Source: an uncultured Alphaproteobacteria bacterium (GTDB taxonomy: Bacteria; Pseudomonadota; Alphaproteobacteria; RF32; CAG-239). Taken from it: a stretch of DNA of 64,000 nucleotides. Both the position numbers and the translations under genes were made by a program. Below the pieces are notes generated by a model, which worked only from the letters and a program-made list of their open reading frames with translations, searched no databases and was not told the DNA's origin. The stretch is taken from assembly GCA_910576955.1 (NCBI GenBank), contig CAJTJB010000001.1, forward strand, positions 238,739-302,738, read 5' to 3'. Below, in pieces: positions 9,360-48,347 of the stretch. Positions within the stretch are counted from its first letter, which is position 1; each line of letters starts with the position of its first letter.

Positions 9360-9477
9360 TTACAGCTCCTTTTCTTGTTATATAACATACAAAAAAATTG
9401 ATGTAAACACCGATTGTTAGGGGAAAGTAAAGATTTTTATTTTATGGTGGTTTATATTAAATTATTCGGGGTTACAG

Positions 9478-10752
9478 ATGATTAAAAAAATTTTGGCACT
9501 AACATTATGCTTTATGGCGCTTTCAAGCTCGGTTTGGGCTGCTGTCAAACCCTTGGAAGAGCAGCGCAAAGAATGGGATAAATGGTTAGATAATCTAAAA
9601 GAAGAAATGATTGACAAAGGCATTTCAAAAAAAACAATTAAACGCGCCTACAAAGACGATTATTTCCACGAAGTGAAAGAGGTGGTTATTCAAGATAAAA
9701 AACAGCCGGAATTTATGCTTACCTCGGATGTTTATCTCAACCGGCTTGTTAATAAAAATAAAGTTAAACTGGCACGCAAACACTATAAAGAGTTAAAGCC
9801 CAAATATAAGAAAATCAGCGCCACATATGGCGTACCGCTTAACTATCTGATTGCATTTTGGGCGGTTGAAACGCATTTCGGCTATAATAAAGGCAAATAC
9901 CACTTAATTGACGGGCTGACAAACTTAAGCTACAAAAATCGGCGTGCAGCTTTTTTCAAACGCGAACTCTACCACGTTTTACAGATTATGGATGAATATG
10001 ATTTAAGCGGCGACAAAATGATGGGCTCTTGGGCGGGCGCTATGGGGCATTTTCAATTTATGCCCTCAACATATAACGCTTATGCGGTTGATTATGACGG
10101 CGACGGCGTGGCGGATATTTGGGACAGCTTTGACGATGCGATTGCCTCGGCAGCTAATTACCTCTCCAAACTCGGTTGGAAAGCCGACGAACCTTGGGGG
10201 CAAGAAGTGCGGCTGCCTTGGAACTTTGATTATAAGCTTGCGGGTGCAAAAAAATATAAACCGGTTAAAGAGTGGCGTAAACTCGGGATTCTTGCAGCGG
10301 ACGGCAAAAAGCTGAAACTTCCGGCAGATGCGCCGGCGGCAATTATTTTGCCGGACGGACGGCGCGGACGGGCTTATATCACGTTAAGCAATTTCCGGCG
10401 GATTATGATTTGGAACAGGTCAACAAATTATGCGTTGGCAATTGTCCGGTTAGCAGATTACATTAACTCTGACAAAGCTTTCAAAGCCTTATCAGATAAG
10501 TATATTTATAAAATTTCGGACGAAGATATTTTGGCTGTGCAGCACTTTGCGAATCGTATTTTAAAAACAAAGCTTAAAGAAGACGGCAAGTACGGTTCAA
10601 AAACTGCCGAAGCGGTCAGAAAATTGCAGAAAAAATGGAAACTGCCGCAAGACGGCGTGCCCGATTATCTGCTAATCAGCAAAATCAAGAAATATAAATC
10701 GCGGGCAGACTTTATGCCGCCGCCACAACCCCAAAAGCCACGACGCATCTAA
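9478..10752 (+). CDS. Lytic murein transglycosylase (MltB family) with a C-terminal peptidoglycan-binding domain
   Basis: Signal peptide present. Core region AFWAVETHFG ... MGHFQFMPSTY is typical of MltB/Slt family 3. The C-terminal ...DGKYGSKTAEAVRKLQKKWKLPQDGVPD resembles the PG_binding_1 domain. Confidence 0.82.
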   Translation: MIKKILALTLCFMALSSSVWAAVKPLEEQRKEWDKWLDNLKEEMIDKGISKKTIKRAYKDDYFHEVKEVVIQDKKQPEFMLTSDVYLNRLVNKNKVKLARKHYKELKPKYKKISATYGVPLNYLIAFWAVETHFGYNKGKYHLIDGLTNLSYKNRRAAFFKRELYHVLQIMDEYDLSGDKMMGSWAGAMGHFQFMPSTYNAYAVDYDGDGVADIWDSFDDAIASAANYLSKLGWKADEPWGQEVRLPWNFDYKLAGAKKYKPVKEWRKLGILAADGKKLKLPADAPAAIILPDGRRGRAYITLSNFRRIMIWNRSTNYALAIVRLADYINSDKAFKALSDKYIYKISDEDILAVQHFANRILKTKLKEDGKYGSKTAEAVRKLQKKWKLPQDGVPDYLLISKIKKYKSRADFMPPPQPQKPRRI

Positions 10753-13276: not shown

Positions 13277-13394
13277 TATCTCCTTTTTTAAATAATTTTA
13301 TAAAAAAATGCGGATATTATCGTTTCGTTAATTTTTTATATTATACAATGATTAAAAAATTTAGCAAAGCTTATTTTGAAGTTAGGAGAAAATC

Positions 13395-16300
13395 GTGCTA
13401 AAAAAGGTTATTATAGGTATCATTTGTTTTATTTTGCTGGCCATTGCCGGTGCGGGCATATATATCTACACACTTGATTGGAATAAGCACAAAGCTCTTG
13501 TGGCACAAAGGCTTACCCAGATTACGGGTTTAAAATCCATCATTGACGGAAACCTTAAGGTTGAGATTTTTCCGGCTCCGAAAATTATGGCAAGCCGTGT
13601 TAAGTTTTATCCAAACAATAACAGTAAGACGCCGCTGGTGGTTATTAACCAAATTACGGCAAATCTTGAATTAGCCCCGTTGATTGACAATAAGTTCATT
13701 GTGCAGTCGATGATTTTGGAGCAACCGTCTGTTAATATTGAAATTTCCGAAAAAGGCGAGTTCAACTGGAAAGATGTGGGGCAAAACAGCCACAATAAAT
13801 CCGGTAACGTCGAGATGTCTTTTGACAACGTGCGCGTTAATAATGCGACAATTGCTTATGAAAACCTGAAAGACAAGAAAGAATATAACATTCCAAACAT
13901 TTCCGCAACGGTTAACGCCCCCTCTTTGCAAGGACCTTATAAAGTTGACGGCAAATTTATCCACAACAACAGCGAGATTAAATTTAAAGGCAATATTTCG
14001 CAAAACAATAAGACTTCTTTAAATATGGCGATTGAAAACGCCGTGACGGGCTCTAAACTTGCCATTGAAGGCTCAATCGGCAATAATTCCAGAGGAACGG
14101 TCAGCTTTGACACACGCAGCCTTACAGATGTTGTTAATGTTATATTCGGCGAAAATGCGCTTAATGACAATTACAAAGAGCCGATGTTTTTCTCTTTTCA
14201 ATACAACTATACCGCCAATATTGCCAAATTAGAGAATTTCACAACCAAGTACGGAAGAAACATCACCGGAAGCGGCAGCGTTTTGCTGAATTTGAGAAAT
14301 GAAAAAAGCGTTGTAGCCGAATTTAATATGGCTCAATTTAACCTTGATGTTTTGGAAACGATTGCACGCGACTATATCAAATTTTCGCAAAATGGCGGAA
14401 AACTGGCTGATACTGCCATTTTCCCATACTCTGTTTCGTTTAAGCTGCGTTCGCCGAGCGCTTTTTACAAAAATGCGGAGGCGCAAAACTTGAATTTCGG
14501 TTTCAATCTGAACAACGGGATTCTGGATATCAACAGTTTCGGAATTGTTATGCCGGGAGAAACTTCGTTCAGGACTGCCGGAAAGGTCAAACTGGATGAA
14601 AAGCTGCAATATATCTTCAACCAGTCAATTAAAAGCGAAGATTTCAGAACCTTTGCCTCCGTTTTCGGTATTGATTTGACCAAACAAACGGCTGAAGAAA
14701 ACAAAAAATCCGTGTTTAAACGGTTAGAAACAAATATCCAATTGAAAGGCAATTTGGATAGTTTTGAGATTTACGCGCCGAAAACGCTTATCGACTCTAC
14801 GACATTGGGCTTTAATATCCGCTATGCTTTGGACGAGGGCAAAAAAATCGTTAATGCCGATATTGCCGCTTCGAAAATCATTTTTGACAAATATTTGCAA
14901 ATCGTACCCGAAAAGCTGAAAAACAGCCCGCTTAAAGATAAATTTATTTATCAGCTTAACCTCATTCCATGGGATAATGATATGTTGACAACGGCGCAGA
15001 TTTCCATTGAAGATGCCGTTTATAACAAAATTCCGATGCAGGATATCGTGTTGCAATTTGTTAAAGAACAAGATAACTTTAACATTAGAAACCTTTCTTT
15101 CAAAAACATTGCAAGTGCGCAGTTAGAAATCAAAGCCGATATTGAGAAAGCTTTTACCGAACCGCAATTTAAGGAGTTATCCTATAATATTAAGTCCGCT
15201 AACCTGCCAATCTTAACCTCCTCTCTCGGATTAGATACGCACAATATGGGATTGTTTAAACGCAAAATATTTGCCTCCCAAGGTGCTTTGGCCGGAAACT
15301 TCAATGACTTCAGTTTGAGCTCTGTTCAGAAATTCGGCGATACGGAATTTTCATTTACCGGTTTGGTGGCAAACCCAGACAAGGCAAAAGTTGCCGTTAA
15401 CGGTGATTTAGAGCTGAAAACAAATAATTTTACCAACTTTGTTAGAGCCTTAAACCTTGACTATACGCCTAATATTCCGGTTACCGCCTTTTCTGCCAAC
15501 GGAAAGATTAAAGGCAATGCCGAAATCTTTGAATTTAGCGATATAAACGCTCTCTTGGGGGCAAACAAAATCAACGGCATTATCCGCTTTGATAACAGCG
15601 CGGACAAGCCCAGACTTAAGGCAGAACTTGATTTTGACAAATTTGATGCGACACGCTGGTTTAACCTTGATAAAAACAACACGGTTAAGTATGTTTCTGA
15701 AACTGCAGACTTTATTGTATTGCCAGCTTTCAGCGCTGATAAAATCGACTATTCGCCTTTAAATAAGGTTGATTTTGACATCAAAGCACATGCAAAATCC
15801 CTTATCTACGGCAATAATTCCTATCTTGCGACAAAGGCGGATATTAAGCTTAAGAAGGGCGTTTTGAATGTGGCTTCTTTTGAAACGCAAAGCGATACCA
15901 GCACCATCAGCGGCAATTTTGTACTTGATTCCAACAATACGCCGAAAGTAAAAGGAAAATATTATGTCGCCGGCATTAAAACACCCGATATGGGCGGAAA
16001 AATTTACCGTTTATCTTCCGGAAAACTTTCGGCTAACGGTACATTTGAATCCGATGCATCCTCGGTTAAGGATTTTGTTGACAACCTCAATTCTGCCGGT
16101 ACTTTCATGCTTACTGATACAGCAATGAAAGGGTGGGATTTAGACATTATTAAATTTGACATCGAACAGAGGAAAACTACTTCCGGCTTTGAAAAATTTG
16201 TGCGTAACAGCTTAACGAGCGGTGAAAGCCCCTTTGCTAAAATCGGCGGGAAATATAGCATTAAAGACGGCAACGTAAGCGCAGACAAAGCTTTATGGCA

Positions 16301-18599
16301 GTCACCGGTGGTTGATATGTATATGCAGTTAGGCATAAACCTGAAAGACAGTACGTTTAGTGCCGTTTGCGACACTATTTACCATAACGCCTCTTTCTCG
16401 GATGTTTTGAAATTTACTTTGGACGGCAAACTCTCCCAGCCGGAACTCAAACTTGATTTGAGCGATACGCTGTCGCGTATCAGCGAGAGCGAGAAACTTG
16501 CCAATGAGGCTATTATCCGGAGAGAACAAGAAAAGAACGAAAAATTAAAAAATAAAATTACTCTGGCAGAGAAAAACTTGGAAGATGCTTTAAAAGCCGT
16601 TTCGCAGGTATCTTTGAAAGCAGCGCAGTTTAAGCCGAAATCCGGTGACAGAGCCGTTATTAGAACATATGACGATATGATTCGGACGATTCAGGGCGCA
16701 CAGCAAAAGCTTGCCGGTCTGCAGGCAAAACTCGGAGCAACTTCGGATGAAAAAGCGCTTATGGATATTGATATGGAAATAAAATCCGAACTATCTAAAT
16801 TACAATTAGCACCTAAAACACTGGAAGACAACTATATTGTTGACGGCAAGTATGTTTATGACGAAATCTTTAACAAAATTGCCTGGCTGTATGATGCCGC
16901 TTCCAACAACGCCGGTTACTTTAATGAGCTTTCCGAGGCATATGTTAACCAAATTGCTTTAATGAAAAACGGCACAGAGCCGCTTTCTGAAGAAACTGAA
17001 AACTTATTGCTGAAAAGTATTCAAAAGGTTTCTGCGGATATGGAAAGAATAAGCAAGCTCCATACTAAAATGCGCGATGACTACCTCTTTATTGTGGATA
17101 CAACAAACATTGAGGCTATGCAAGACAATAACGAAATTGCAGAGCAAGCATTAAATACCATGCTTTCATATGCAAAATCCCTCAACAAAGATATTATCAG
17201 CAGCATTGAAGGCTTTATTTCCGCCCTTGGATTGGAAACCCGCGATTATAACGATTATATGGTTTCAATTCCGGAGAAAACCGAAGATATTGACTTAACA
17301 CGCCCGACAACGGCAACACCGGCAGACAAAGAGAAAACGGAGAAAAAAGCCGAGCCTGAAGCTAAAGTTGAAGAAAAAGCACAGGCATCAGCCTCTGCCC
17401 CGCAAACTGCAAGCGTTGCCGCAGAAAGCACGCCTGTTGTCGAAGCAGCGCCTGCTCCTGCGGAGATTGCCGTTTCAGAATCTGCTGATAATAAGTCGAC
17501 TGAAGATCCGGCTGATAAAAAAAAAATTGATGATAAATTAAGCCAGCTGCAAAACATTAAAAGCAATTTGTATGAGCTTATTAATAACTTCAGGGCAGAA
17601 CAACGGGCAAAAGAAGAGATAAAGACGGCAGCAAATGTCAATTCGGGAGGTTTGTCTTCGCTTTTATCAAACATCTTAACCCCCGAACCGAGCCCGGAAA
17701 CTCCTCAAGCCGTTGCCATTGAAGCCGATGACAGCGCAGAAAAGCCCGCTGAAATTGCCGCAGTTTCTCCGGCTCCGGTAAAACAAGATGAAGTTTCTGC
17801 CCTGCCTGTGGAAATTCAATTGGTGGAATCCGGTATTCCCACTGCCTCTTTAACTAAAGATGAAGAGGCTGCTATGACCGCAAGCCTTGACCTGATGCAA
17901 AAAACGCAAACCGCCTTAAATGACATTATTGCTCATGTTAAGGCCGAAGAAGAAAAAATGCAATCTCTTCGCATTGAAGAGCCGACACCGGTTGTTGTGG
18001 CGCAAAATACCGTTGCCCCTGTTGCCGAACCCGAAAAAATCAACATAAAAGACTATACCATTGCGCAACCTGAAACCAAATCAAACCTTAAACGCAATCC
18101 GGTTATTGCGCTTAATATCGGCAAAGAATTAACCTCTTCGGCGGCTAATGAATTTAACAATCTAAACAAAAGACCTGCCTCCAAATTTAAAAAAGCGCGT
18201 TACAATGATGTTATCAAAACCTTTGCCGGAAAGTCCAAAAGCAACCGTGCGATTATGGCGCAAAATATGTTGCCAAACCGAAAAGTTGAGTCCGCTGCAA
18301 CAGCATTACCGGTAATTACCGTGCATTCTGACAATCTGGAGCCGTCTTTTGACATCAGCTATTCCTCTGTTGAACCGGAAACAGCCAAAATTTCTTTTGC
18401 AGATAACAAATATGTTTTCGCAAGCAGTTTATCCCCTCTTGACAAAGCAAGCGGCGTTATCGGAAAAAGCGCGCTTGAAAACAAAGACATTCTGCCGCAA
18501 ACAACACGTTTGAACAAATATCTTTTTGCCGCCAATGACAATAATTTTGCCAAATTAAGCGGCGTTGCCGGTAAATATTCCTCGTTAGCTGTTAAATAA
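13395..18599 (+). CDS. AsmA-family (TamB/YhdP-like) inner-membrane-anchored protein. At 1734 aa it is unusually long, with a coiled-coil and an Ala/Pro/Glu/Lys low-complexity C-terminal half.
   Basis: N-terminal TM MLKKVIIGIICFILLAIAGAGIYIY is followed by AsmA-like beta-rich region. From about residue 1000 come heptad-like stretches (LANEAIIRREQEKNEKLKNKITLAEKNLEDALKAV) and low-complexity stretches (EKKAEPEAKVEEKAQASASAPQTASVAAESTPVVEAAPAPAE). GTG start. Confidence 0.7.
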   Translation: MLKKVIIGIICFILLAIAGAGIYIYTLDWNKHKALVAQRLTQITGLKSIIDGNLKVEIFPAPKIMASRVKFYPNNNSKTPLVVINQITANLELAPLIDNKFIVQSMILEQPSVNIEISEKGEFNWKDVGQNSHNKSGNVEMSFDNVRVNNATIAYENLKDKKEYNIPNISATVNAPSLQGPYKVDGKFIHNNSEIKFKGNISQNNKTSLNMAIENAVTGSKLAIEGSIGNNSRGTVSFDTRSLTDVVNVIFGENALNDNYKEPMFFSFQYNYTANIAKLENFTTKYGRNITGSGSVLLNLRNEKSVVAEFNMAQFNLDVLETIARDYIKFSQNGGKLADTAIFPYSVSFKLRSPSAFYKNAEAQNLNFGFNLNNGILDINSFGIVMPGETSFRTAGKVKLDEKLQYIFNQSIKSEDFRTFASVFGIDLTKQTAEENKKSVFKRLETNIQLKGNLDSFEIYAPKTLIDSTTLGFNIRYALDEGKKIVNADIAASKIIFDKYLQIVPEKLKNSPLKDKFIYQLNLIPWDNDMLTTAQISIEDAVYNKIPMQDIVLQFVKEQDNFNIRNLSFKNIASAQLEIKADIEKAFTEPQFKELSYNIKSANLPILTSSLGLDTHNMGLFKRKIFASQGALAGNFNDFSLSSVQKFGDTEFSFTGLVANPDKAKVAVNGDLELKTNNFTNFVRALNLDYTPNIPVTAFSANGKIKGNAEIFEFSDINALLGANKINGIIRFDNSADKPRLKAELDFDKFDATRWFNLDKNNTVKYVSETADFIVLPAFSADKIDYSPLNKVDFDIKAHAKSLIYGNNSYLATKADIKLKKGVLNVASFETQSDTSTISGNFVLDSNNTPKVKGKYYVAGIKTPDMGGKIYRLSSGKLSANGTFESDASSVKDFVDNLNSAGTFMLTDTAMKGWDLDIIKFDIEQRKTTSGFEKFVRNSLTSGESPFAKIGGKYSIKDGNVSADKALWQSPVVDMYMQLGINLKDSTFSAVCDTIYHNASFSDVLKFTLDGKLSQPELKLDLSDTLSRISESEKLANEAIIRREQEKNEKLKNKITLAEKNLEDALKAVSQVSLKAAQFKPKSGDRAVIRTYDDMIRTIQGAQQKLAGLQAKLGATSDEKALMDIDMEIKSELSKLQLAPKTLEDNYIVDGKYVYDEIFNKIAWLYDAASNNAGYFNELSEAYVNQIALMKNGTEPLSEETENLLLKSIQKVSADMERISKLHTKMRDDYLFIVDTTNIEAMQDNNEIAEQALNTMLSYAKSLNKDIISSIEGFISALGLETRDYNDYMVSIPEKTEDIDLTRPTTATPADKEKTEKKAEPEAKVEEKAQASASAPQTASVAAESTPVVEAAPAPAEIAVSESADNKSTEDPADKKKIDDKLSQLQNIKSNLYELINNFRAEQRAKEEIKTAANVNSGGLSSLLSNILTPEPSPETPQAVAIEADDSAEKPAEIAAVSPAPVKQDEVSALPVEIQLVESGIPTASLTKDEEAAMTASLDLMQKTQTALNDIIAHVKAEEEKMQSLRIEEPTPVVVAQNTVAPVAEPEKINIKDYTIAQPETKSNLKRNPVIALNIGKELTSSAANEFNNLNKRPASKFKKARYNDVIKTFAGKSKSNRAIMAQNMLPNRKVESAATALPVITVHSDNLEPSFDISYSSVEPETAKISFADNKYVFASSLSPLDKASGVIGKSALENKDILPQTTRLNKYLFAANDNNFAKLSGVAGKYSSLAVK

Positions 18600-18669: not shown

Positions 18670-19563
18670 ATGTTTGCCAGACCAGAAGTTGCCGTTTTGC
18701 CGGTGGCAGGGCTTTCAACCCGCAATTTGCCGGCAACAAAGGCTATGCATAAGGGCTTTTTATGCTTAAACAACCTACCGATTATCCAATATGCCGTTGA
18801 TGCGTGCGCGGAAGCAGGAGTTAAAGAAATTATCTTTATTTACAGCGATGACACCTCGCGGGCGATGTATGAAAACTATTTTTCCCCTAAAAAAGAGCTG
18901 GAAGAACGCCTGCTTCGGCAAGATAAGCTTGAACTTTGGGAAGCGCTGAAAAAAACCGTTCCCGCAGGTGTTAAATTCTCGTTTGCAAGGCAGAGCGAAC
19001 CGAAAGGAAACGGACACGCCGTGTTATGCGCCAAAGAGATTATCGGCAACAGAGATTTTATTGTGATGTGGGTGGATGATGTTTACGTTTGCCGCGGCAA
19101 AGGCATATTGTCCCAACTTTCCGAAGTTTACGAAAGGTGCGGCGGCATTATTGAAAACATTATCGAATTTCCGAAAGAGCAGCTTTCGAGATACGGCGTT
19201 TTGACCGGCGCAGTCAAAGAGGGAAATATCGTTTCGGCCTCGGGCGTTATCGAGAAGCCGAAAATAGAGCAAATCGAATCGCCCTATGCGAGTATGGGAC
19301 CGTATATTTTGCCTAATCTTATTTTAGATATTTTACCCGAGGTGCAAAAGGGCAGTAACGGTGAAATCAACCTAACCGATGCCATTAACCTTGCCGCTCA
19401 TCGCGGAACACCGCTTAAAGGCGTTTTGGCGGCAGCAGAACGCTATGACTGCGGCACAAATGAAGAACTGGCAAAATCAAATATTCGGCTTTCCATACGC
19501 GAAAATAAAGTCTTATACGAAGAGGCAGTCAGAACCGTTAAAGAACTCGACGGCGAGCTCTAG
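18670..19563 (+). CDS. galU: UTP--glucose-1-phosphate uridylyltransferase
   Basis: VAVLPVAGLSTRNLPATKAMHKGFL... matches the nucleotidyltransferase G-x-G-T-R motif and K-(L)P-ATKA signature of GalU. Confidence 0.8.
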   Translation: MFARPEVAVLPVAGLSTRNLPATKAMHKGFLCLNNLPIIQYAVDACAEAGVKEIIFIYSDDTSRAMYENYFSPKKELEERLLRQDKLELWEALKKTVPAGVKFSFARQSEPKGNGHAVLCAKEIIGNRDFIVMWVDDVYVCRGKGILSQLSEVYERCGGIIENIIEFPKEQLSRYGVLTGAVKEGNIVSASGVIEKPKIEQIESPYASMGPYILPNLILDILPEVQKGSNGEINLTDAINLAAHRGTPLKGVLAAAERYDCGTNEELAKSNIRLSIRENKVLYEEAVRTVKELDGEL

Positions 19564-20510
19564 AGCACCTGCTTTTGATTAAGGCGGAGCGTTTTTATGA
19601 CGCCAAACAGAAAATACAGCTCCAAAAAGCTTTTTTCTATCCGCTTTTTATTCAACACCGTCCGGAAAAAACTGCTGCATTCAAACAAGTTTTTATTGGT
19701 TTCGATGTTTACCAGAACTTCGTTATTAAAAAAGCTGAAAGTTATATTCGGATGATTTTCTTTGGCTTTTAACATGTATTCAAGCATCACGGTTGTGAGC
19801 AGATAACGCGCCTCGATTTGATCTTCGGCATATACCTCATAGGCTTTTTCAAATTCGGGCGATTCCAGCCCTACCCTTTGCAGATTTTTATAATGCGCCA
19901 GTTTATTCAGCCAGCCGCGGTCTTTGACAACGATGGTTTGTCCGCTGAATTTTTTATTCATTCGCGCGCTAAACAATATGCCTCCGCCTGTCTTATGTTT
20001 GACAACACGCGTTTGTCCGTTGGTCCGCTGATATTTTTTTTGATACAGCGCATATTCGCTTATTTTAACCGGTATATCATCGTATGTTCCCTCAAAACAA
20101 TCGTCCGTTTTAATCTCGTCATACGGTTTCATTATTTTAGAATATGACAGCGTTTCTTCGGATAGTTGTTTCCGGAAGGTATAATCGAATTTGCCGAAAA
20201 ATCCTGCTAACAAAGGAAGCAGGCTCTCTTTGCTTTGGCGATAGTAGAGGAACATCGGCAGGCTGGTTAACAGAACGGCAACGCACCCTATTATATTAAC
20301 GCCAACCGGTATATGGGTACTGCTTTCTGATATGATTAGGGAACTGATAATATATCCGAACCACCCGAGTGCAAATAACGAAATCAGATAAAACCGGAAC
20401 AACATTTTTTTGCGTTTTTGTTCCAGTTGTTGCAATTTCGGGAGAAGCGTTTGCGCATAATATATATCAAACTGCCGTTTTGCGGCATTAAGCTCCAAAT
20501 TGTCAGACAT
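19560..20510 (-). CDS. Hypothetical membrane protein (two N-terminal TM helices plus a soluble domain); DUF3137-like by resemblance
   Basis: 316 aa. AT-rich gene, 4-bp convergent overlap with galU, no recognisable catalytic motifs. Confidence 0.5.
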   Translation of the reverse strand: MSDNLELNAAKRQFDIYYAQTLLPKLQQLEQKRKKMLFRFYLISLFALGWFGYIISSLIISESSTHIPVGVNIIGCVAVLLTSLPMFLYYRQSKESLLPLLAGFFGKFDYTFRKQLSEETLSYSKIMKPYDEIKTDDCFEGTYDDIPVKISEYALYQKKYQRTNGQTRVVKHKTGGGILFSARMNKKFSGQTIVVKDRGWLNKLAHYKNLQRVGLESPEFEKAYEVYAEDQIEARYLLTTVMLEYMLKAKENHPNITFSFFNNEVLVNIETNKNLFECSSFFRTVLNKKRIEKSFLELYFLFGVIKTLRLNQKQVL

Positions 20511-20573
20511 TCCGGTTTTCCTTTGGCAAATTTTAATCTTTAGGTTTTATGATAATGCCAATATCTTAAATAT

Positions 20574-21821
20574 TTGTTTAACGGGGACTTTATGATTAAC
20601 GTTTTATGGGCAGGGATGTTTTTAATTGCTGCGGTTGCCGCCCTTATCCAGACTTTGCGGGGCGATACGGAAGCTTTTAATCTTATCATCCGAGCAATCT
20701 TTAAAAGCTCGCAGTCGGCGGTTGAAATTTCTCTCGGGCTTATCGGAATTTTGAGTTTTTGGCTCGGCATACTCAAACTGGTGGAGGAATCGGGCATTGC
20801 CGGTAAAATCTCGGAAAAATTGACTCCCTTATTTCGCGTGATAATGAAAGACATCCCCGAAAACAGCCCTGCCATTTCTACGGTAGTGCTGAATATGGCG
20901 GCAAACTTTTTGGGGTTAGACAATGCGGCAACGCCGACCGGACTTAAAGCGATGGAACAATTGCAAGAGCATAACCGGCAAAAAGATACGGCAAGCGATG
21001 CGCAAATTTTATTTATGATATTAAATTCCTCCGCGATTACGCTTATCCCGATTACGATTTTTATGTATCGGGCGCAGATGGGAGCAAGCCGACCGACGGA
21101 TGTGTTTATTCCGATTTTGCTGGCAACTTCGGTTTCTACGATGGCGGGCTTTATAAGTGTTGCCCTCAAACAGAAAATCCCTTTGGCAAACAAAATATTG
21201 TTAAAATGGTTGTTCGGATTTGGCATATTCATCTTTTTGCTTGCCGGCGGGTTTTATTTGATTGACAGTGAAAACAGGATGGTCGTATCAGCCCTGCTGG
21301 GAAATGCCTTGCTGTTTATGCTCATATGCGCGGTCATTGTCACCGCAGTTTATAAACGCGTGAAATGCTATGAGGCGTTTGTTGAGGGGGCAAAAGAAGG
21401 TTTTGGCGTGGCAATACGCATTCTCCCGTATTTGTTGGCAATGCTTGTTGCTATCGGCATTTTCAGGGCATCGGGAATTTTAGATATGTTCACCGATGGC
21501 ATTCGACAACTTTGCATCCGGTTTGGCGGAAGCGGACAATTTGTTGATGCGCTGCCGACAGCCCTGATGAAACCGCTTTCAGGCAGTGGAGCTCGGGCAA
21601 TGATGATTGAAACAATGCAGACGTACGGCGCTGACAGTTTTGCGGCATTTTGTGCCTCGGTTATTCAGGGCTCAACGGAAACGACCTTTTATGTCTTGAC
21701 GGTTTATTTCGGTGCGATTAATATTTCAAAAACACGGTATGCCCTGAAATATGCTTTATGGGCGGATTTTGCCGGTATTGTTGCGGCTATTGCCGTTTCG
21801 TACTTATTTTATATGCCATAG
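20574..21821 (+). CDS. Nucleoside-recognition-domain membrane protein (fused SpmA/SpmB-like transporter)
   Basis: 415 aa, polytopic, two-lobed and Gly-rich ([20 protein letters not shown] ... [20 protein letters not shown]), resembling the Gate / nucleoside recognition domain. Confidence 0.6.
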
Positions 21822-22271: not shown

Positions 22272-23171
22272 TTAATATTTAAGCAACGTATTCAATTTGC
22301 CTGCCATTGCCTCTAAAGCGTCTTCAAGCAATTTGGCCATCAGCTTTTGCGCGATGTCTTGTCTGTTTTGCTCTTCGGAAATGATGATATAACGGTTTTG
22401 CTGCTCGGTATCAACAACAATGCCGTTTGTTTTCTGCAGCTCTATTGCCACAGACATACTGTACCGGCTGTTTTTGCCATCAATCTTTTCCATTTTGGAC
22501 TGCAGCAGTTTGGGGACTATGAAATAATCTGCTAGTTCTTTGCTTTCGGTTACCAACACTTTGGGTTCAAAAGAAAGTTTTTGCGCTAATTTTGCCGTGT
22601 ATGCCGAAGTGGTTTCGTGATTATAGAACTCGACGTCTTTTATATATATAAGAGGTATTGCCCCGTCATCTTCTTCAATCGATTTAGGAAGAAGAGCGGT
22701 CACTTCCCGGGCTATTTTTTTGACATTTTGCACGGCAAACGTGTTTTCGGCTTTTTCCTGCCTTATCGCATCGGCTTTTTGCGTATCCAAATATCCGGAA
22801 AACTCCAGACATATCCTTTCTTCATCATCACGCACGGTGATGATTGACACGTCATTTAAGGCTTTGTCCGCAAGCTTATATGCCAAAACGCCATAGCTGT
22901 GGTCATCCAGACCGGATGCATTTTTTTGCATATACTCCGATGTTTTTACTGCCATAAAAGCTGCTTTGTCATAGGCTTCAAAACGCGTGTCGGAGGGGGA
23001 TTTTCCGGCAGCAACATTTTGGCAGACCGCTGACTTTACGGGCAACAAAAAACTGTCTGCCCGGACAGTGCTTACGAAACTTATAAGCACCACCCCGACA
23101 GACAGCTTAATCAGAGTTTTTATCATATACAGGTTAGTCCTGAACCTGTCTGATAATTTCAACCCACTCAT
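22272..23171 (-). CDS. Hypothetical secreted protein
   Basis: About 285-299 aa. The probable start MIKTLIKLSVGVVLISFVSTVRA is a signal peptide. Co-directional with the upstream lipoprotein gene. Confidence 0.55.
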   Translation of the reverse strand: MSGLKLSDRFRTNLYMIKTLIKLSVGVVLISFVSTVRADSFLLPVKSAVCQNVAAGKSPSDTRFEAYDKAAFMAVKTSEYMQKNASGLDDHSYGVLAYKLADKALNDVSIITVRDDEERICLEFSGYLDTQKADAIRQEKAENTFAVQNVKKIAREVTALLPKSIEEDDGAIPLIYIKDVEFYNHETTSAYTAKLAQKLSFEPKVLVTESKELADYFIVPKLLQSKMEKIDGKNSRYSMSVAIELQKTNGIVVDTEQQNRYIIISEEQNRQDIAQKLMAKLLEDALEAMAGKLNTLLKY

Positions 23172-24084
23172 TTACTTTCTGACCGTTTCTGTCAAGCAAA
23201 GACAATTTATATTGCAGGGCAGGCATAACATTATCAGATGTTACATACCAATCTGCCGATGTATCAATTACGAAATCTGCATCGTTGGCATTGTTTACAA
23301 CATCAAATGCTCTTGAACCATCAATAATTTCTTTTGTGATGCCTCTTAAGCGATGGCTGCCATACGGCAAATCAGAACTCATTAAACGCGTATCTTTTAA
23401 ATATACGGTTCGGCTTGCACCATTATCATAGACAGCTGCCGTATCCTGCAACATCCGGTTTGTGGCACGCGTGGCTACAACATCATAAGCTTCCGGCTTA
23501 TATTTGGCTGCAGCGGCTGCACTTACTTTTGCCGATGAAGAGTTCATGGCTACCACTTCGGAACGATACGGGTTTCTTTCAACCGTTACTTCAACCAAAT
23601 CTTCTGCCGCAGCAGGTGCAGGAGCTGCCGAAACCTGATTATATCCGGAATAACTTACTTCTTCTACCGGAACAATTTCTTCATGTGTGGTTACAACAGG
23701 TTCGCAAACAGGTTTGCCGCAGGGCTCTTCCAACGTGGTGGTGGTGGTAATAATTTTTTTAGTGGTTGTGACTTTGGGCTGCGGCGCAGGCATCGGTTGG
23801 CAACCGCAAGACTGCATACACGGCGCCTGATAGCACGGCATCGGCTGAACTTCCGCACAGGGGCAGTCATATACTGGTGTCGGTGCCGGAATGTAAACCG
23901 GTTCCTGTTTTACAACAACCGGAGCTGCTACCGGTGCTGCAACAGGTTCGGGTTCAACAACCGGAGCCGGCTCAACATATGTCTGGTCATCAAACATAAC
24001 AACATCGACTTCTTCCCACTGGTTTTCATCGCATGCACAAGCAGCTAACAGACCGCAGGCTACTACACTTAAAACTTTTTTCAT
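23134..24084 (-). CDS. Lipoprotein with a Pro/Cys-rich linker and a C-terminal globular domain (LpoB/LPP20-like resemblance, uncertain)
   Basis: Lipobox MKKVLSVVACGLLAAC. Pro/Val repeats (PAPVVEPEPVAAPVAAPVVV) and a Cys/Pro cluster (CPCAEVQPMPCYQAPCMQSCGCQPMPAPQP) precede the C-terminal domain. Confidence 0.6.
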   Translation of the reverse strand: MKKVLSVVACGLLAACACDENQWEEVDVVMFDDQTYVEPAPVVEPEPVAAPVAAPVVVKQEPVYIPAPTPVYDCPCAEVQPMPCYQAPCMQSCGCQPMPAPQPKVTTTKKIITTTTTLEEPCGKPVCEPVVTTHEEIVPVEEVSYSGYNQVSAAPAPAAAEDLVEVTVERNPYRSEVVAMNSSSAKVSAAAAAKYKPEAYDVVATRATNRMLQDTAAVYDNGASRTVYLKDTRLMSSDLPYGSHRLRGITKEIIDGSRAFDVVNNANDADFVIDTSADWYVTSDNVMPALQYKLSLLDRNGQKVNEWVEIIRQVQD

Positions 24085-28662: not shown

Positions 28663-31224
28663 GTGTTTTCAATCGTTTTTTTAGGAGAAAAAACCGTGGT
28701 TAGCCGCAGAAAAGTGAAAAAAGCCGAAAAGATGCAACGCAAAAATCAAGGCATGACGCTTGAGGAAGCATACAAGATTCTTGACACTGCGCCCTCCCTT
28801 GTCAGCAACAGCGTTTACGAAGAAGCTTTAAAAGTGATGGAACGTGAAGATGCCGGATTTGCTGCTGAAATCAGAGCCTTTAATGAAGCCAAAGCTAAAG
28901 AAGATGCCCTCCGCGTTGCTTATGAAATTGCGGGCGGCTACAAAACCAATGTCATCAGTAAAAAGCGTTTTGAAAATGCAATAAAACTCGTAACGGCTGA
29001 TGATCCGGAATTTGCCAGAACATTGCAAGCCCTTTCCGAAAACGGTATGAGTTTTAAAGATGCTGACAGCGAACATCTTGCACAAGCCGAACAAACAGTG
29101 ATACAAAATGCGCAACTTCTTGAAAAAGAATATCGCAACAGTGAGCAGTTAAAACAAGAGGTCTTTACGGACGATGTTCGCGAATTGATGAACAATACCG
29201 TTGTTGAGGGCGTTTCTCAAGAAGATGCGGAACAAATCATTTTTGTAACCGGTCAGCAAGATGCCCTTCAGGAAATTGCGGAACGTGCTGATTTAGAAAA
29301 TGTTTCCGACGATGAAAAACACCAGATTGTGGTGGATACGCTTCAAGATGCCGTCAGAGGCAATTTGCTTCGTAGCCGTGCGGAAAATACGCCGTTGCGC
29401 GATGCCGTAAATTCTTCGAAAAAAGTTAAAGTTTCTTCTAACTCTGTTTTCAGCGCTTTCAAACAAGCCGCACAGCGTGCAAACGCTTATTTAAAAGACT
29501 TGGGCAGAAGAGGATGGAAAAAAGCTGCCGCTTTATTTAACAGGGCTAAAACTTTTGTTTGCGAGCACCCGAAGACAACTTTGGCTTCCACAGCGTTTAT
29601 TCTGGCGGCAAGTTCTTTGGTTGTCGGTTACTCTGACAAAGATTCGCATAAAAACCAAGATCAAATGCCCACGGAGCAGAAAACCGTTGTTTTGAATGAC
29701 ACGACAAAAACATCGGCGGCGATTGTTTCCGACACAATCCGTTCAGACAGCATTCCGGTTTTGGAGGTTGCTCCAGTTGCACAATCCGCCGTTGCTGATA
29801 CAACCCGCACTACTACCCTTAAATCGGTTACCCAAAACGCAACAAAAGCAACCGTTAAAAAAGGTGCAACAGTAAACGCCGTTAAAGCAAGTGCGATTGA
29901 AGATAATTTTGAGATTGTTGCAAAAGCCGACACAGCAGCTGTTGAAGATGATTTTGAGATTGTTACAAAGGCTGATACAGCAGCTGTTGAAGATGATTTC
30001 GAGATTGTTACAAAGGCTGGCAAAGCAGCTGTGGAAGATGATTTCGAGATTGTTGCAACAGCGGATGATTTCGAAATTACGACAGACAATCCGACAGTAC
30101 AAGCTGACAGCATTGTAAATAAAGTTGTTTTAGACCACGATTCCATTCCGGCGGGCACACCGTCTGCAATGTATACTGCCGAACGCGGCGGCGTGGATGG
30201 ATCCGGCTTATCTTCAGACGCTCTGAAAAAAGACCAAAAATGGTATGACAATACTTTTTATAAAGGGGCATATCAAGATTTTGTTGAGTTGCTTCGTAAA
30301 GATGAAAACCTTTATCTCTTTAATAAAGGAAACGTCGGCGAAGGCGTTACTCCGGAGATTTTGCTGCATAAACATGCTGCACAGGCAAGATGGGGAAATG
30401 ACAAATATGGCGAATTTGCAACAACAATTACTGCTATGAACCAGTTTTTAAACGGTTGCGTAGAACAGCTTGATGTTACAAAGGCCGAACAGATTAAAGC
30501 CGTTATGGACAGAGTAAACACAGACGGAACTATTGATGGCGTTGTCGGCAAACAAAATGTTCGCAATCTTTCCATTAAATACAACGGTTGCGGCGAAACC
30601 ATGACATATGACGCTACTTATTCGGCAGATCCGGTCAGACCGACAAATCCGTCAGGCGAGAAATATCAGAGATTGTATATGATGTCTGATACTATTCGCA
30701 GAAAAGCAGAGCCCATAACCGTGACATACGAATATTCAACGCAGCTCCCGCAACAGCAGGTTCAAATCAGCGTTGCCGAATATCGCGGAAACCACGAAAA
30801 GGGACAAGGCTTAACCGATGGCAAGAAAATCAGAGACCTGTCGGCAGATGTTGTTGATTCGTTATCTGTTACAGACAGACAAATTGCATCTTACCAATCA
30901 GAGCAATCTGTTGACCAGCAAGCTCCAAACGGCAACATCAACGAGTTGAAAGGAAACTTTGCTTCCGGCGAGGGCTTAAATGCCGGCGTGGTGGTTGATA
31001 CGCATAAAGAGGTATCCGTATCCGTAAATGACAGGCAGATTAACTCTAATCAGGAAGACAATTTTGAAATCGTAACCGCAGACAAGCGTTCTCATGCCAA
31101 CACTCCGGGTAAAGCCAAGAAAGGCGGTGTTAAGAAGAAAAGCAAAAAACAAATCGAACAAGAAGCGTTAGATATGGCGCGAGCAGATTATTTCCGTATA
31201 AGAATGCAATCTTCTAATAACTGA
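28663..31224 (+). CDS. Large hypothetical protein (about 840 aa) with one internal hydrophobic segment and tandem acidic EDDFEIV(A/T)KA(D/G)TAAV repeats; effector-like
   Basis: No N-terminal signal peptide. An alternative GTG start at 28696 lies 7 nt after AGGAG. One TM-like stretch (TLASTAFILAASSLVVGYS) is present. A 45-bp tandem repeat array lies at 29900-30085, and a further EDNFEIV occurs near 31060. It has its own promoter and terminator. Confidence 0.75.
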   Translation: MFSIVFLGEKTVVSRRKVKKAEKMQRKNQGMTLEEAYKILDTAPSLVSNSVYEEALKVMEREDAGFAAEIRAFNEAKAKEDALRVAYEIAGGYKTNVISKKRFENAIKLVTADDPEFARTLQALSENGMSFKDADSEHLAQAEQTVIQNAQLLEKEYRNSEQLKQEVFTDDVRELMNNTVVEGVSQEDAEQIIFVTGQQDALQEIAERADLENVSDDEKHQIVVDTLQDAVRGNLLRSRAENTPLRDAVNSSKKVKVSSNSVFSAFKQAAQRANAYLKDLGRRGWKKAAALFNRAKTFVCEHPKTTLASTAFILAASSLVVGYSDKDSHKNQDQMPTEQKTVVLNDTTKTSAAIVSDTIRSDSIPVLEVAPVAQSAVADTTRTTTLKSVTQNATKATVKKGATVNAVKASAIEDNFEIVAKADTAAVEDDFEIVTKADTAAVEDDFEIVTKAGKAAVEDDFEIVATADDFEITTDNPTVQADSIVNKVVLDHDSIPAGTPSAMYTAERGGVDGSGLSSDALKKDQKWYDNTFYKGAYQDFVELLRKDENLYLFNKGNVGEGVTPEILLHKHAAQARWGNDKYGEFATTITAMNQFLNGCVEQLDVTKAEQIKAVMDRVNTDGTIDGVVGKQNVRNLSIKYNGCGETMTYDATYSADPVRPTNPSGEKYQRLYMMSDTIRRKAEPITVTYEYSTQLPQQQVQISVAEYRGNHEKGQGLTDGKKIRDLSADVVDSLSVTDRQIASYQSEQSVDQQAPNGNINELKGNFASGEGLNAGVVVDTHKEVSVSVNDRQINSNQEDNFEIVTADKRSHANTPGKAKKGGVKKKSKKQIEQEALDMARADYFRIRMQSSNN
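29900..30085 (+). repeat. Imperfect 45-bp tandem repeat, about 4.1 copies, in-frame and coding
   Basis: Units gaagat(a/g)at tt(t/c)gagattgtt(g/a)caaa(a/g)gc(c/t)g(a/g)cacagcagctgtt encode (A)VEDDFEIVTKADTAAV. The last copy is truncated (DDFEITT). Confidence 0.85.
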
Positions 31225-46360: not shown

Positions 46361-46493
46361 CTTCTCACCGTTCTTGAAATTCCATATTATCTCTATTTTA
46401 CATGAAAGTTGTATAAAATCAAATAAAATACTATCAATTAAAAAATTTTTAGTGTAAATGTTTATTTGAACAATAATGTTTGAGGGAAAACTA

Positions 46494-48347
46494 ATGAAGA
46501 AACTTGTTTGTTTTATGGGAGCTGTTGCCGGTTTTGTGGGCGCTTGCTCTACTACTGCGCCGGAAGTTACCGTTGAGGCGCCAGCTATGTCCGCCTATTA
46601 TTCCGACTGGGACAGAGCTGTCAGAGCCGATGTTGATATGCAGAATATGTATATCGGCACGCCGTCGAAAATCACAAAACCTGTTGATATGTATATGGCA
46701 ATGGCTTTAGCTTTGAAATATAATTACACAAGAAGGCTGGCCAGCTATAAAGAAAGTCTGGGCGCAGATAATATTTCTTTGGCAGCGCTGCCGACCATGG
46801 CTGAAAATCTGGGGTATGAAAACAGCACGAATTCCGATGCAGTTCCGGCTGATTTGAAAGTTTCTTGGAATCTTTTAGACTTATCCGCACTTCAGTATCA
46901 GAACACGGCGGCTTCTCCCGAAACAGCTGCTCAAGAGCAAACACGCAAAGTTATCAATAACATCATGCTGGAAACGCGTTCTTTGTATTGGAAAGCTTTA
47001 GCTGCGCAGCGGCTTATTCCGGTTATTGATGACATGAACGAGTATCTGGTTCGCGTTGTGGATGAGATTAACGCTCGTTCAAATGAGATGGCTAAAGCAG
47101 GCAAAAATCCCTCAACGACTCTGCTTGTAAAAAAGAGAACTTATCTTGAAAACATCAAAAAATTAGCTGATTTGAGAAAGAAATTTGACACAGCTCAAAC
47201 CGAATTTGCCGGTTTGCTGGGGTTATATCCTTCCGCAGAAATCAAATTAGCCGGGGCGGAATACGGCAATTTCCCAATTCCGTCGCTGCGAGCTAAAATT
47301 CAGCAATTAGAATGGCTTGCATTAACGAATCGCCCTGAACTGCGCGCATTTGATTTGGGAACATCCAAAGACGAGCTGCAGCTTGTGATTAAAGATTTTG
47401 ACAGCGTTAACAACAGTGATTATCGCCAAGACCCCAACTATTATAACAGAAAATGGGCAAAAGATTCGAATGCGCTGTCTATGACTGTTTTTGAAGAAGC
47501 TACTGATAATAATGACTTGACTTATAATTCATTAGCACGGCAGAGAATGGCGCACATTGTGCTTAATCAGGTTTATCTGGCATGGGCTATGTATCAGTCT
47601 GCCGTGGAAGATTATTACCTGAATATGGGCGTGGCGACAACGTCTGAAGATATTGCCGAAGATATTACCAACAAAGAAGGCGCAAACAAAGCTATCAGCC
47701 ATTTAGAATCGGCTCGCGCCATTATTGACGAGGCAAACGCTTTCTTATCTTATATAGACGTTCAGGAAGCAATCGGCAGATTATATGCCAGTATCGGGTT
47801 AGATGCTGTTCCGGCATCTATGCTTAAAGATACTCCGTCTGTTATCGCCGTACAAATCAGAGAATCGCTTGACAATTGGAGCAACGGTATCTTCTCGGCT
47901 GATGTTAAAGGCGCTTTGGCGACATCTTCCGGACAGAAACCTCCGGCAGATATTTCATCTGCGGCATTAGTTCCAAATGTTGTTGTCGGGACCGGATCTG
48001 ATGTTAACATTAAAATTCCGGATGAAGTTTTCCAAAAAGTAAATTGGGAAGGAAATTATACAACTGTTGCCGGCTCGTTAGATGATGCGGGGTTGCCTGC
48101 TTGGTTGAAATATGATGACAAAACTCACACCTTTACCGGGCATCCGACGATGGAAGACGAAGGAGATTATCGCATTAAAGTGTATGCTTTAGATAATTCC
48201 GGCAACAGCGCGGTGCTTGGCTTTACGATTACCGTAAATAATGTTTATATTCAAACGATGGAATATAAAGGGCTGACCGGTTACAGACGTGCTAAAGTAT
48301 ATCATAAATGCACACCGGGAACGCCTTGTGCAAAAAATGATATATAA
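46494..48347 (+). CDS. Lipoprotein combining an OMF/TolC-like (NodT-type) helical region with a C-terminal cadherin-like / putative Ig domain
   Basis: Lipobox AVAGFVGAC. The OMF-like region has LDLSALQYQNTAA...LYWKALAAQRLIPV...WLALTNRPELRAFDLG. The C-terminus has VNIKIPDEVFQKVNWEGNYTTVAGSLDDAGLPAWLKYDDKTHTFTGHPTMEDEGDYRIKVYALDNSGNSAVLGFTITVNN (dystroglycan-type cadherin-like motif). The track start at 46476 is an upstream extension. Confidence 0.55.
   Translation: MKKLVCFMGAVAGFVGACSTTAPEVTVEAPAMSAYYSDWDRAVRADVDMQNMYIGTPSKITKPVDMYMAMALALKYNYTRRLASYKESLGADNISLAALPTMAENLGYENSTNSDAVPADLKVSWNLLDLSALQYQNTAASPETAAQEQTRKVINNIMLETRSLYWKALAAQRLIPVIDDMNEYLVRVVDEINARSNEMAKAGKNPSTTLLVKKRTYLENIKKLADLRKKFDTAQTEFAGLLGLYPSAEIKLAGAEYGNFPIPSLRAKIQQLEWLALTNRPELRAFDLGTSKDELQLVIKDFDSVNNSDYRQDPNYYNRKWAKDSNALSMTVFEEATDNNDLTYNSLARQRMAHIVLNQVYLAWAMYQSAVEDYYLNMGVATTSEDIAEDITNKEGANKAISHLESARAIIDEANAFLSYIDVQEAIGRLYASIGLDAVPASMLKDTPSVIAVQIRESLDNWSNGIFSADVKGALATSSGQKPPADISSAALVPNVVVGTGSDVNIKIPDEVFQKVNWEGNYTTVAGSLDDAGLPAWLKYDDKTHTFTGHPTMEDEGDYRIKVYALDNSGNSAVLGFTITVNNVYIQTMEYKGLTGYRRAKVYHKCTPGTPCAKNDI

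Follow-up and report, generated by a model that had tools for sequence, protein, structure and literature searches.

A lineage-specific C-terminal module on a predicted AsmA-like envelope bridge of uncultured gut Alphaproteobacteria

Introduction

AsmA-like proteins are grooves anchored in the inner membrane (IM) that move glycerophospholipids to the outer membrane (OM). How such bridges dock at the OM and deliver lipid into it is the main open question concerning them, with three solutions known, namely TamA, YnbE and the YhdP helices. It is the C-terminal region that governs OM engagement in every AsmA-like protein characterized so far. In TamB, the last strand joins strand β1 of TamA, with four strands lying within the TamA barrel (PMC12800296); in YdbH, the last strand joins the lipoprotein YnbE; and YhdP, with a length of ~250 Å against a periplasm of 210-240 Å (PMC10592960), engages the OM through two hydrophobic C-terminal helices that, when grafted onto YdbH, make YdbH independent of YnbE (PMC12447247). 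Precedent for modular C-terminal engagement of the OM is thereby found in several reports (PMC10592960, PMC12447247, PMC12800296). Here we describe an AsmA-like gene carried on a 64,000-nucleotide stretch of contig CAJTJB010000001.1 from an uncultured alphaproteobacterium (assembly GCA_910576955.1; hereafter the window, by whose positions features are located). Its predicted product of 1734 amino acids (aa) appears to combine a complete AsmA-like body with an appended C-terminal module of ~710 residues that matches no described family. An earlier note, made from this sequence without database searches, had read the product as a divergent AsmA-family protein whose C-terminal half took the place of the usual DUF490-type region and might act as a spacer or ruler.

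Results

A complete AsmA-like body

Judged by alignment and predicted structure, residues 1-1021 are a complete AsmA-like unit. An N-terminal transmembrane (TM) anchor at residues 2-26 (13398..13472, + strand), modelled as a helix by AlphaFold2 (AF2), is the sole TM-like hydrophobic segment of the protein (family median of the maximum hydropathy over 19 residues, KD19, 2.56), and the Pfam family AsmA (PF05170) matches residues 3-208 (13401..14018, +) with an E-value of 1.1e-21 and 77.7 bits against a cut-off of 29.8, bearing out the AsmA-family N-terminus with TM segment proposed in the earlier note. From residue 47 to residue 1021 (13533..16457, +), the AF2 model of the body, for which an alignment of 35 sequences was the input, forms a continuous repeating β-groove (β-taco) of 52 strands with a mean predicted local distance difference test score (pLDDT) of 87; the β-rich character of this region had been recognized before, but its end lies at 1021 rather than at ~980. 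One face of the groove strands is 62% hydrophobic and 8% charged and the other 29% and 33%, respectively, with a period-2 amphipathicity of z = 6.4 relative to within-strand shuffles. Among solved structures, the top Foldseek match of the body was the bridge-like lipid-transfer protein (BLTP) LPD-3/BLTP1 (9cap_A, E 2.6e-13), followed by ApoB100, LptD and TamB chains. Eukaryotic BLTPs (BLTP1/LPD-3, VPS13, ATG2) likewise join a repeating β-groove to C-terminal helical or adaptor-binding regions; the likeness to LPD-3/BLTP1, the best solved match, concerns the body, with no sequence homology in the C-terminal module.

Profile-profile alignment with hhalign matched residues 2-1022 with ordinary alphaproteobacterial AsmA/YhdP-like proteins of 1038-1265 aa (P0060-P0064, all above the Pfam AsmA cut-off) over 987 columns, with a probability of 100% and an E-value of 1.3e-53. 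The end-of-groove motif G.L..P, present as GKLSQP at residues 1011-1016 (16425..16442, +) with G1011 and P1016 invariant, is also found in these five relatives and in E. coli YhdP. The groove end that had been thought to be lacking is therefore present, and because the body aligns end to end with ordinary AsmA-like proteins, the C-terminal part has been added to it and does not make up for a domain that was lost. The earlier note was right that DUF490 is absent and the extension unusual, but the extension is appended to a complete body instead of replacing part of it. At 4.8 Å per strand, 52 strands give an upper bound of ~250 Å, and the aligned length is that of the 1038-1265-aa relatives. 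Pfam, AF2, Foldseek, hhalign and strand amphipathicity all support the earlier proposal of a divergent AsmA-like lipid-groove protein that would span the periplasm, and with this support we predict that the product is very probably an IM-anchored, envelope-spanning phospholipid bridge of AsmA/YhdP type.

An intact gene shared among gut lineages

The gene is a single open reading frame (ORF) of 1734 codons plus stop (13395..18599, +), started by GTG, with a Shine-Dalgarno sequence, AGGAGA (13384..13389, +), read from the sequence 5 nt 5' of the start. Gene calling gave an identical protein (P0001) on 43 contigs, which come from independent NCBI, ENA and Logan assemblies, and in 27 of 29 species-level loci the AsmA-like gene was uninterrupted as one ORF. 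The gene with its tail is thus not the product of a frameshift or mis-assembly, a possibility that the earlier note had raised. Full-length relatives numbered 57 (1595-1860 aa, 37-72% identity), and all related loci derived from metagenome-assembled genomes of uncultured Alphaproteobacteria from human, mouse and ruminant gut. The C-terminal extension is shared by all 57, with a bundle of fixed length and a linker of variable length. A few of these orthologs are automatically named 'AsmA family protein'; the earlier note had named orthologs of the same architecture already placed in a known family as evidence against its reading, and such orthologs exist, but their module is in no database family or paper that we found. 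Two loci (L009 and L029) considered as sources of tail-only proteins were rejected, both encoding full-length divergent orthologs.

Architecture of the C-terminal module

Directly after the groove, residues 1022-1300 (16458..17294, +) are predicted to form a five-helix bundle (AF2 pLDDT 85-94 over residues 1023-1278), with helices at 1023-1078, 1086-1115, 1119-1191, 1199-1234 and 1239-1278 that measure 56, 30, 73, 36 and 40 residues, respectively. The domain is ~279 aa long here and 273-280 aa in all 57 orthologs (standard deviation (SD) 1.1), and nine of its residues are invariant (K1141, E1144, N1146, K1161, W1164, N1172, Y1175, R1227 and Y1230). Its helices are 20-38% charged, none is TM-like, and their hydrophobic period is ~3.6 (z 2-5.6) rather than 3.5, pointing to an amphipathic soluble bundle and not to a canonical heptad coiled coil. 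Structural matches were confined to generic helix-bundle folds. The invariant polar and aromatic cluster suggests that the bundle carries a binding surface instead of serving as a passive spacer.

The bundle is followed by a low-complexity, net-acidic linker rich in A, E, T, K and P (residues 1301-1563; 17295..18083, +) that is predicted to be disordered (pLDDT < 50), varies from 153 to 375 aa among orthologs (SD 54) and is net negative in 45 of the 57. Its entropy minimum lies at 1301-1350. Two isolated helices are predicted within it: H6 (residues 1378-1413; 17526..17633, +; AF2 pLDDT ~60), with a hydrophobic period of 3.4 and a conserved island, 'GLS..L' (residues 1419-1424), just beyond it, and H7 (residues 1488-1526; 17856..17972, +; AF2 pLDDT ~70), which bears a conserved 'KTK.A...I' island; the hydrophobic periods of the two are 3.4-3.5. 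The C-terminal half had been described as coiled-coil and low-complexity sequence with a single tract of 150 or more low-complexity residues. Its ~710 residues are indeed helical and low-complexity or disordered, but they form no canonical heptad coiled coil, and the tract is instead a disordered zone of ~260 residues with two helices inside.

By eye, the sequence at 17646-17678 (residues 1418-1428, GGLSSLLSNIL), which holds the 'f.GLS..L' island, resembles the extreme C-termini of three of the ordinary relatives (P0060-P0062: …SLLNNLLQGGGQ, …ALQGLLGGQ and …SLLKGVFGGEKK). This mid-tail island may be the ancestral terminus, in which case everything beyond it would be a later accretion.

The protein ends in a basic terminal module with a net charge of +11 (residues 1564-1734; 18084..18596, +), which across orthologs is 119-203 aa long and net positive in 47 of 57. 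It opens with a conserved island, LKRNPVIALNIGK (residues 1565-1577; 18087..18125, +; consensus lK.NPViAlnIGk), in which P1569 and A1572 are invariant, and contains a second island, GFK.KK. Towards the terminus lie two repeat units, YVFASSLSPLDKASGVIGK (residues 1673-1691; 18411..18467, +) and YLFAANDNNFAKLSGVAGK (residues 1709-1727; 18519..18575, +), with the motif at positions -62 and -26 counted from the C-terminus, the second being followed by YSSLAVK and the stop codon. Y1709, F1711, G1723 and L1731, in or after the second unit, are invariant. In 49 of the 59 members of the family, units of the form Y[VLI]F-x(10-13)-G-x-x-G-K occupy these two positions, against three matches in all bodies combined. 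This position-locked tandem motif, on which the earlier note had not remarked, is the most conserved feature of the tail. Considering that the bundle is length-locked with invariant residues, the terminal motif position-locked and the charge polarity conserved, we conclude from the sequence comparison that the tail module is genuine and subject to selection.

Lineages differ in how many terminal units they carry, from two to five, as seen with the family fragments P0082, P0092, P0085 and P0088; fragments of other members have three to five copies. One of the four, P0082, carries three near-identical copies that represent recent duplications (PEPVEPKYVFEPSA.P.SFSGHSVKRINANKF). Short sequences considered as independent small motif proteins (P0076-P0096) were rejected as contig-edge or mis-started fragments.

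Searches for known families of the extension

Pfam and NCBIfam searches with the whole protein and with the pieces 209-1000, 1001-1310 and 1311-1734 returned the N-terminal AsmA domain alone, the remainder being coiled-coil noise at E > 0.01. Among the AsmA, AsmA_2 and DUF490 hidden Markov models that the earlier note had named as a check, only AsmA matched: DUF490/TamB (PF04357), AsmA_2 and YhdP (PF13116) matched neither the whole protein at E <= 1 nor the pieces at E <= 10, and LysM, OmpA_C, SPOR and PG_binding were likewise without a match at E <= 10 in the pieces. Compared with PDB sequences, a profile of the C-terminal half found nucleoporin coiled-coil noise only (E ~0.04). When this profile was run with HMMER against 1.84 billion representative proteins, 45 matches were obtained, all of them family members or their fragments plus one syntenic ortholog from a divergent sister lineage (P0087); across the same set, the C-terminal profile was not found in other protein contexts and retrieved none of the relatives of the P0060-P0064 type. 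Literature searches found no description of an architecture with this C-terminal module. On the evidence of these searches, the ~710-residue module is lineage-specific and matches no described family.

Comparison with described AsmA-like systems

The ordinary AsmA/YhdP-like relatives (P0060-P0064), which match AsmA (PF05170) and weakly YhdP (PF13116) or DUF748, share with the present protein the TM anchor, the AsmA N-domain and the G.L..P motif. Beyond the groove they have a tail of ~60-110 aa, compared with 713 aa here, in which one short helix leads through a linker rich in Pro and Ala to a small amphipathic motif at the end, without the five-helix bundle and without the Y[VLI]F…G..GK repeats. 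Such a short tail is a plausible ancestor of the present one, and the giant tail looks like a 7-10-fold elaboration of it.

YhdP of E. coli and P. aeruginosa resembles the protein in having an IM-anchored β-groove of ~1000 or more residues, proposed to be an envelope bridge and phospholipid carrier, and its post-groove helical elements are both essential and modular (PMC10592960, PMC12447247). The end-of-groove G-P-L-D-x-P of E. coli YhdP is visibly shared, although the alignment, made with a single sequence, was not significant (hhalign E 0.15). [quoted passage not shown]

TamB shares the superfamily fold (Foldseek chains 9xdc_B and 9xdd_B, E ~0.01) and the concept of C-terminal β-strands that dock into an OM partner (PMC12800296). 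The protein described here differs in lacking DUF490 and an adjoining tamA, and in its terminus, which is mostly K in this family while E. coli TamB ends in …YQFEF; the hhalign comparison with E. coli TamB, again with a single sequence, was not significant (E 0.39). In the YdbH-YnbE-YdbL system, too, the C-terminal end of an AsmA-like groove depends on an extra element to reach or engage the OM (PMC11126948, PMC12447247), but here the extra element is present in cis and no small lipoprotein genes adjoin. YdbH of P. aeruginosa, at 855 aa (PMC12447247), is also much shorter than the present body.

Genomic neighbourhood

The AsmA-like gene occupies a fixed gene order of lytic transglycosylase, thymidine phosphorylase, PNP, AsmA-like gene, galU-like gene and DUF3137, which is also kept in the divergent sister lineage of P0087. 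The window is core chromosome (IleRS, LeuRS, ClpX, SpoT, GAPDH, PGK, Lgt and Dtd), and the AsmA-like protein diverges more quickly than the proteins encoded around it (40-50% identity versus 70-85%). The annotated ORFs of the window and the flanks of the 29 syntenic loci contained no Omp85, TamA or POTRA gene and no small-lipoprotein gene, which leaves room for an Omp85-type gene at another genomic site. A second AsmA-like gene is likewise absent from the window. Neither a small-lipoprotein operon partner of YnbE type nor YdbL adjoins the gene, its neighbours in all loci being PNP and thymidine phosphorylase upstream and the galU-like gene downstream.

The downstream gene (18670..19563, +) encodes a GalU-like nucleotidyltransferase (Pfam NTP_transferase), for which galU was the top NCBIfam match with a score under the cut-off, and is adjacent to the AsmA-like gene in all loci. 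The 70-nt gap between the two holds no terminator-like site and one lies directly after galU (19569-19587), a weak hint of possible co-transcription given that the promoter and terminator scans did not rise above shuffled expectation.

Several further genes of the window drew attention. A predicted lipoprotein of 316 aa (23134-24084, - strand), with lipobox MKKVLSVVACGLLAAC, a linker rich in Pro/Val/Ala and in Cys, and a globular C-terminal part, has no family match in Pfam or NCBIfam; it and an adjacent 299-aa signal-peptide protein (22272-23171) are kept in all syntenic loci. Two paralogs of ~210 aa (7247-7888 and 8260-8886, both -) share an N-terminus of prepilin type, …GRSMIEMLGVLA[IV]V[GA]ILSV…, and C-terminal regions that are rich in Cys and close with …[AV]L[ED]FD; the former had no NCBIfam match and the latter no Pfam match, each having been run on that one database only, and some of the related loci show weak conservation of both (32-38%). 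Neither Pfam nor NCBIfam matched a large ORF of 853 aa (28663-31224, +) in housekeeping surroundings at E <= 0.001, and a 415-aa ORF (62086-63333, -) likewise had no match in either database. A 623-aa protein (46476-48347, +) combines a weak OEP/TolC-like match with a C-terminal He_PIG Ig-like domain, an unusual pairing. At 20574-21821 (+) lies a 415-aa membrane protein with nucleoside-recognition 'Gate' domains; a 230-aa ORF on the opposite strand (20540-21232, -) was rejected as a gene, being most likely the shadow of this plus-strand gene, and its apparent conservation stems from the overlap.

Discussion

Because the protein carries none of the YhdP-, YdbH- or TamB-type devices, its C-terminal addition is most likely an alternative OM-engagement module on an AsmA-like bridge, a reading that we favour on balance and in which we infer a docking role for the tail. 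The bundle would sit at the OM-proximal end or exit of the groove and serve as a partner-binding head, and the flexible linker would act as a tether bringing the terminal repeats to the OM or to an OM-proximal partner. The repeats might then fold upon partner binding, probably as β-hairpins, with the partner encoded elsewhere in the genome. Carried further, the arrangement could amount to a fourth, so far undescribed way of engaging the OM, in which a soluble helical head at the groove exit and a long disordered tether present tandem units that fold, as β-hairpins, when they bind into an OM barrel or lipoprotein encoded at an unlinked locus, making bridge assembly reversible or regulated instead of constitutive; this fuller scheme is speculative and we hold it to be doubtful.

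Several observations weigh against a tail that docks at the OM. The AF2 pLDDT is below 50 over the whole terminal module, which makes the β-hairpin nature of the terminal units only a guess. Of 57 family members, 36 end in K and one in F, and a Lys end lacking an aromatic β-signal speaks against docking of the canonical kind at the lateral gate of an Omp85 protein. The syntenic ortholog P0087 keeps the bundle and has a shorter Pro/Glu/Lys tail without the terminal motif, which is therefore not indispensable across the wider lineage. Two loci (L013, ~9699-9799; L016, ~9367-9449) have a frameshift within the low-complexity linker, which accounts for the 'short' relatives P0039 and P0042 and reflects either an error made in sequencing a repetitive stretch or a true split of the gene; downstream, the new frame runs through the tail for 445 and 512 codons, respectively, without meeting a stop.

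The two frameshifted loci are what would favour the C-terminal half being a separate gene fused by frameshift or mis-assembly, or the result of non-functional drift. Set against them are the identical 1734-aa protein on independent assemblies, the single ORF of the remaining loci, the stop-free tails of the frameshifted loci themselves, the length-locked bundle with its invariant residues and the position-locked terminal motif, and we consider an artefact effectively excluded. A ruler or spacer, by which the extension would lengthen the bridge or set the inter-membrane distance across a wider periplasm, finds support in the bundle, whose length is invariant and whose helices of 56 and 73 residues would extend ~84 and 110 Å if straight. 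The ruler envisaged in the earlier note nevertheless fits the bundle only, since a linker that is both disordered and variable in length cannot set a distance. The β-groove alone already aligns end to end with extension-free relatives, its 52 strands are comparable to those of bridges known to span the periplasm (PMC10592960), and an antiparallel bundle adds at most one helix length and not the sum of its helices. For these reasons we regard a distance-setting role as unlikely.

Two other explanations concern the terminal module itself. It might fold back onto peptidoglycan (PG) or another periplasmic machine and so fix the bridge to the cell wall instead of to an OM partner, as would suit its predominantly basic charge among orthologs. 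Ala/Pro-rich hinges are typical of periplasmic linkers, and the conserved genes close by include a lytic transglycosylase that has a PG-binding domain. Synteny with this gene carries no functional signal, however, because the whole block of core housekeeping genes is conserved, and with none of the four PG-associated or periplasmic domain families found in the pieces, such anchoring seems distinctly unlikely. Alternatively, the tail could be threaded through an OM barrel and exposed at the surface under diversifying selection from host or phage, which would agree with its being the fastest-evolving part of a fast-evolving protein and with its indels, low complexity and variable repeat copy number; the C-terminal strands of TamB do sit in the lumen of the TamA barrel (PMC12800296). 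Yet an IM-anchored AsmA-like protein has no known route by which its C-terminus could be exported, the terminal motif is conserved and not diversifying, and the terminus has no aromatic residue resembling a β-signal, which together render surface display very improbable.

If the C-terminal addition is an alternative OM-engagement module, its terminal motif would provide a handle for finding the OM partner, within the practical limit that the hosts are uncultured. The module could also be grafted onto YdbH or YhdP, much as the YhdP C-terminus was in P. aeruginosa. With a complete groove and none of the three known docking devices, this clade of gut and rumen Alphaproteobacteria offers a natural experiment on the C-terminal modularity of AsmA-like bridges.

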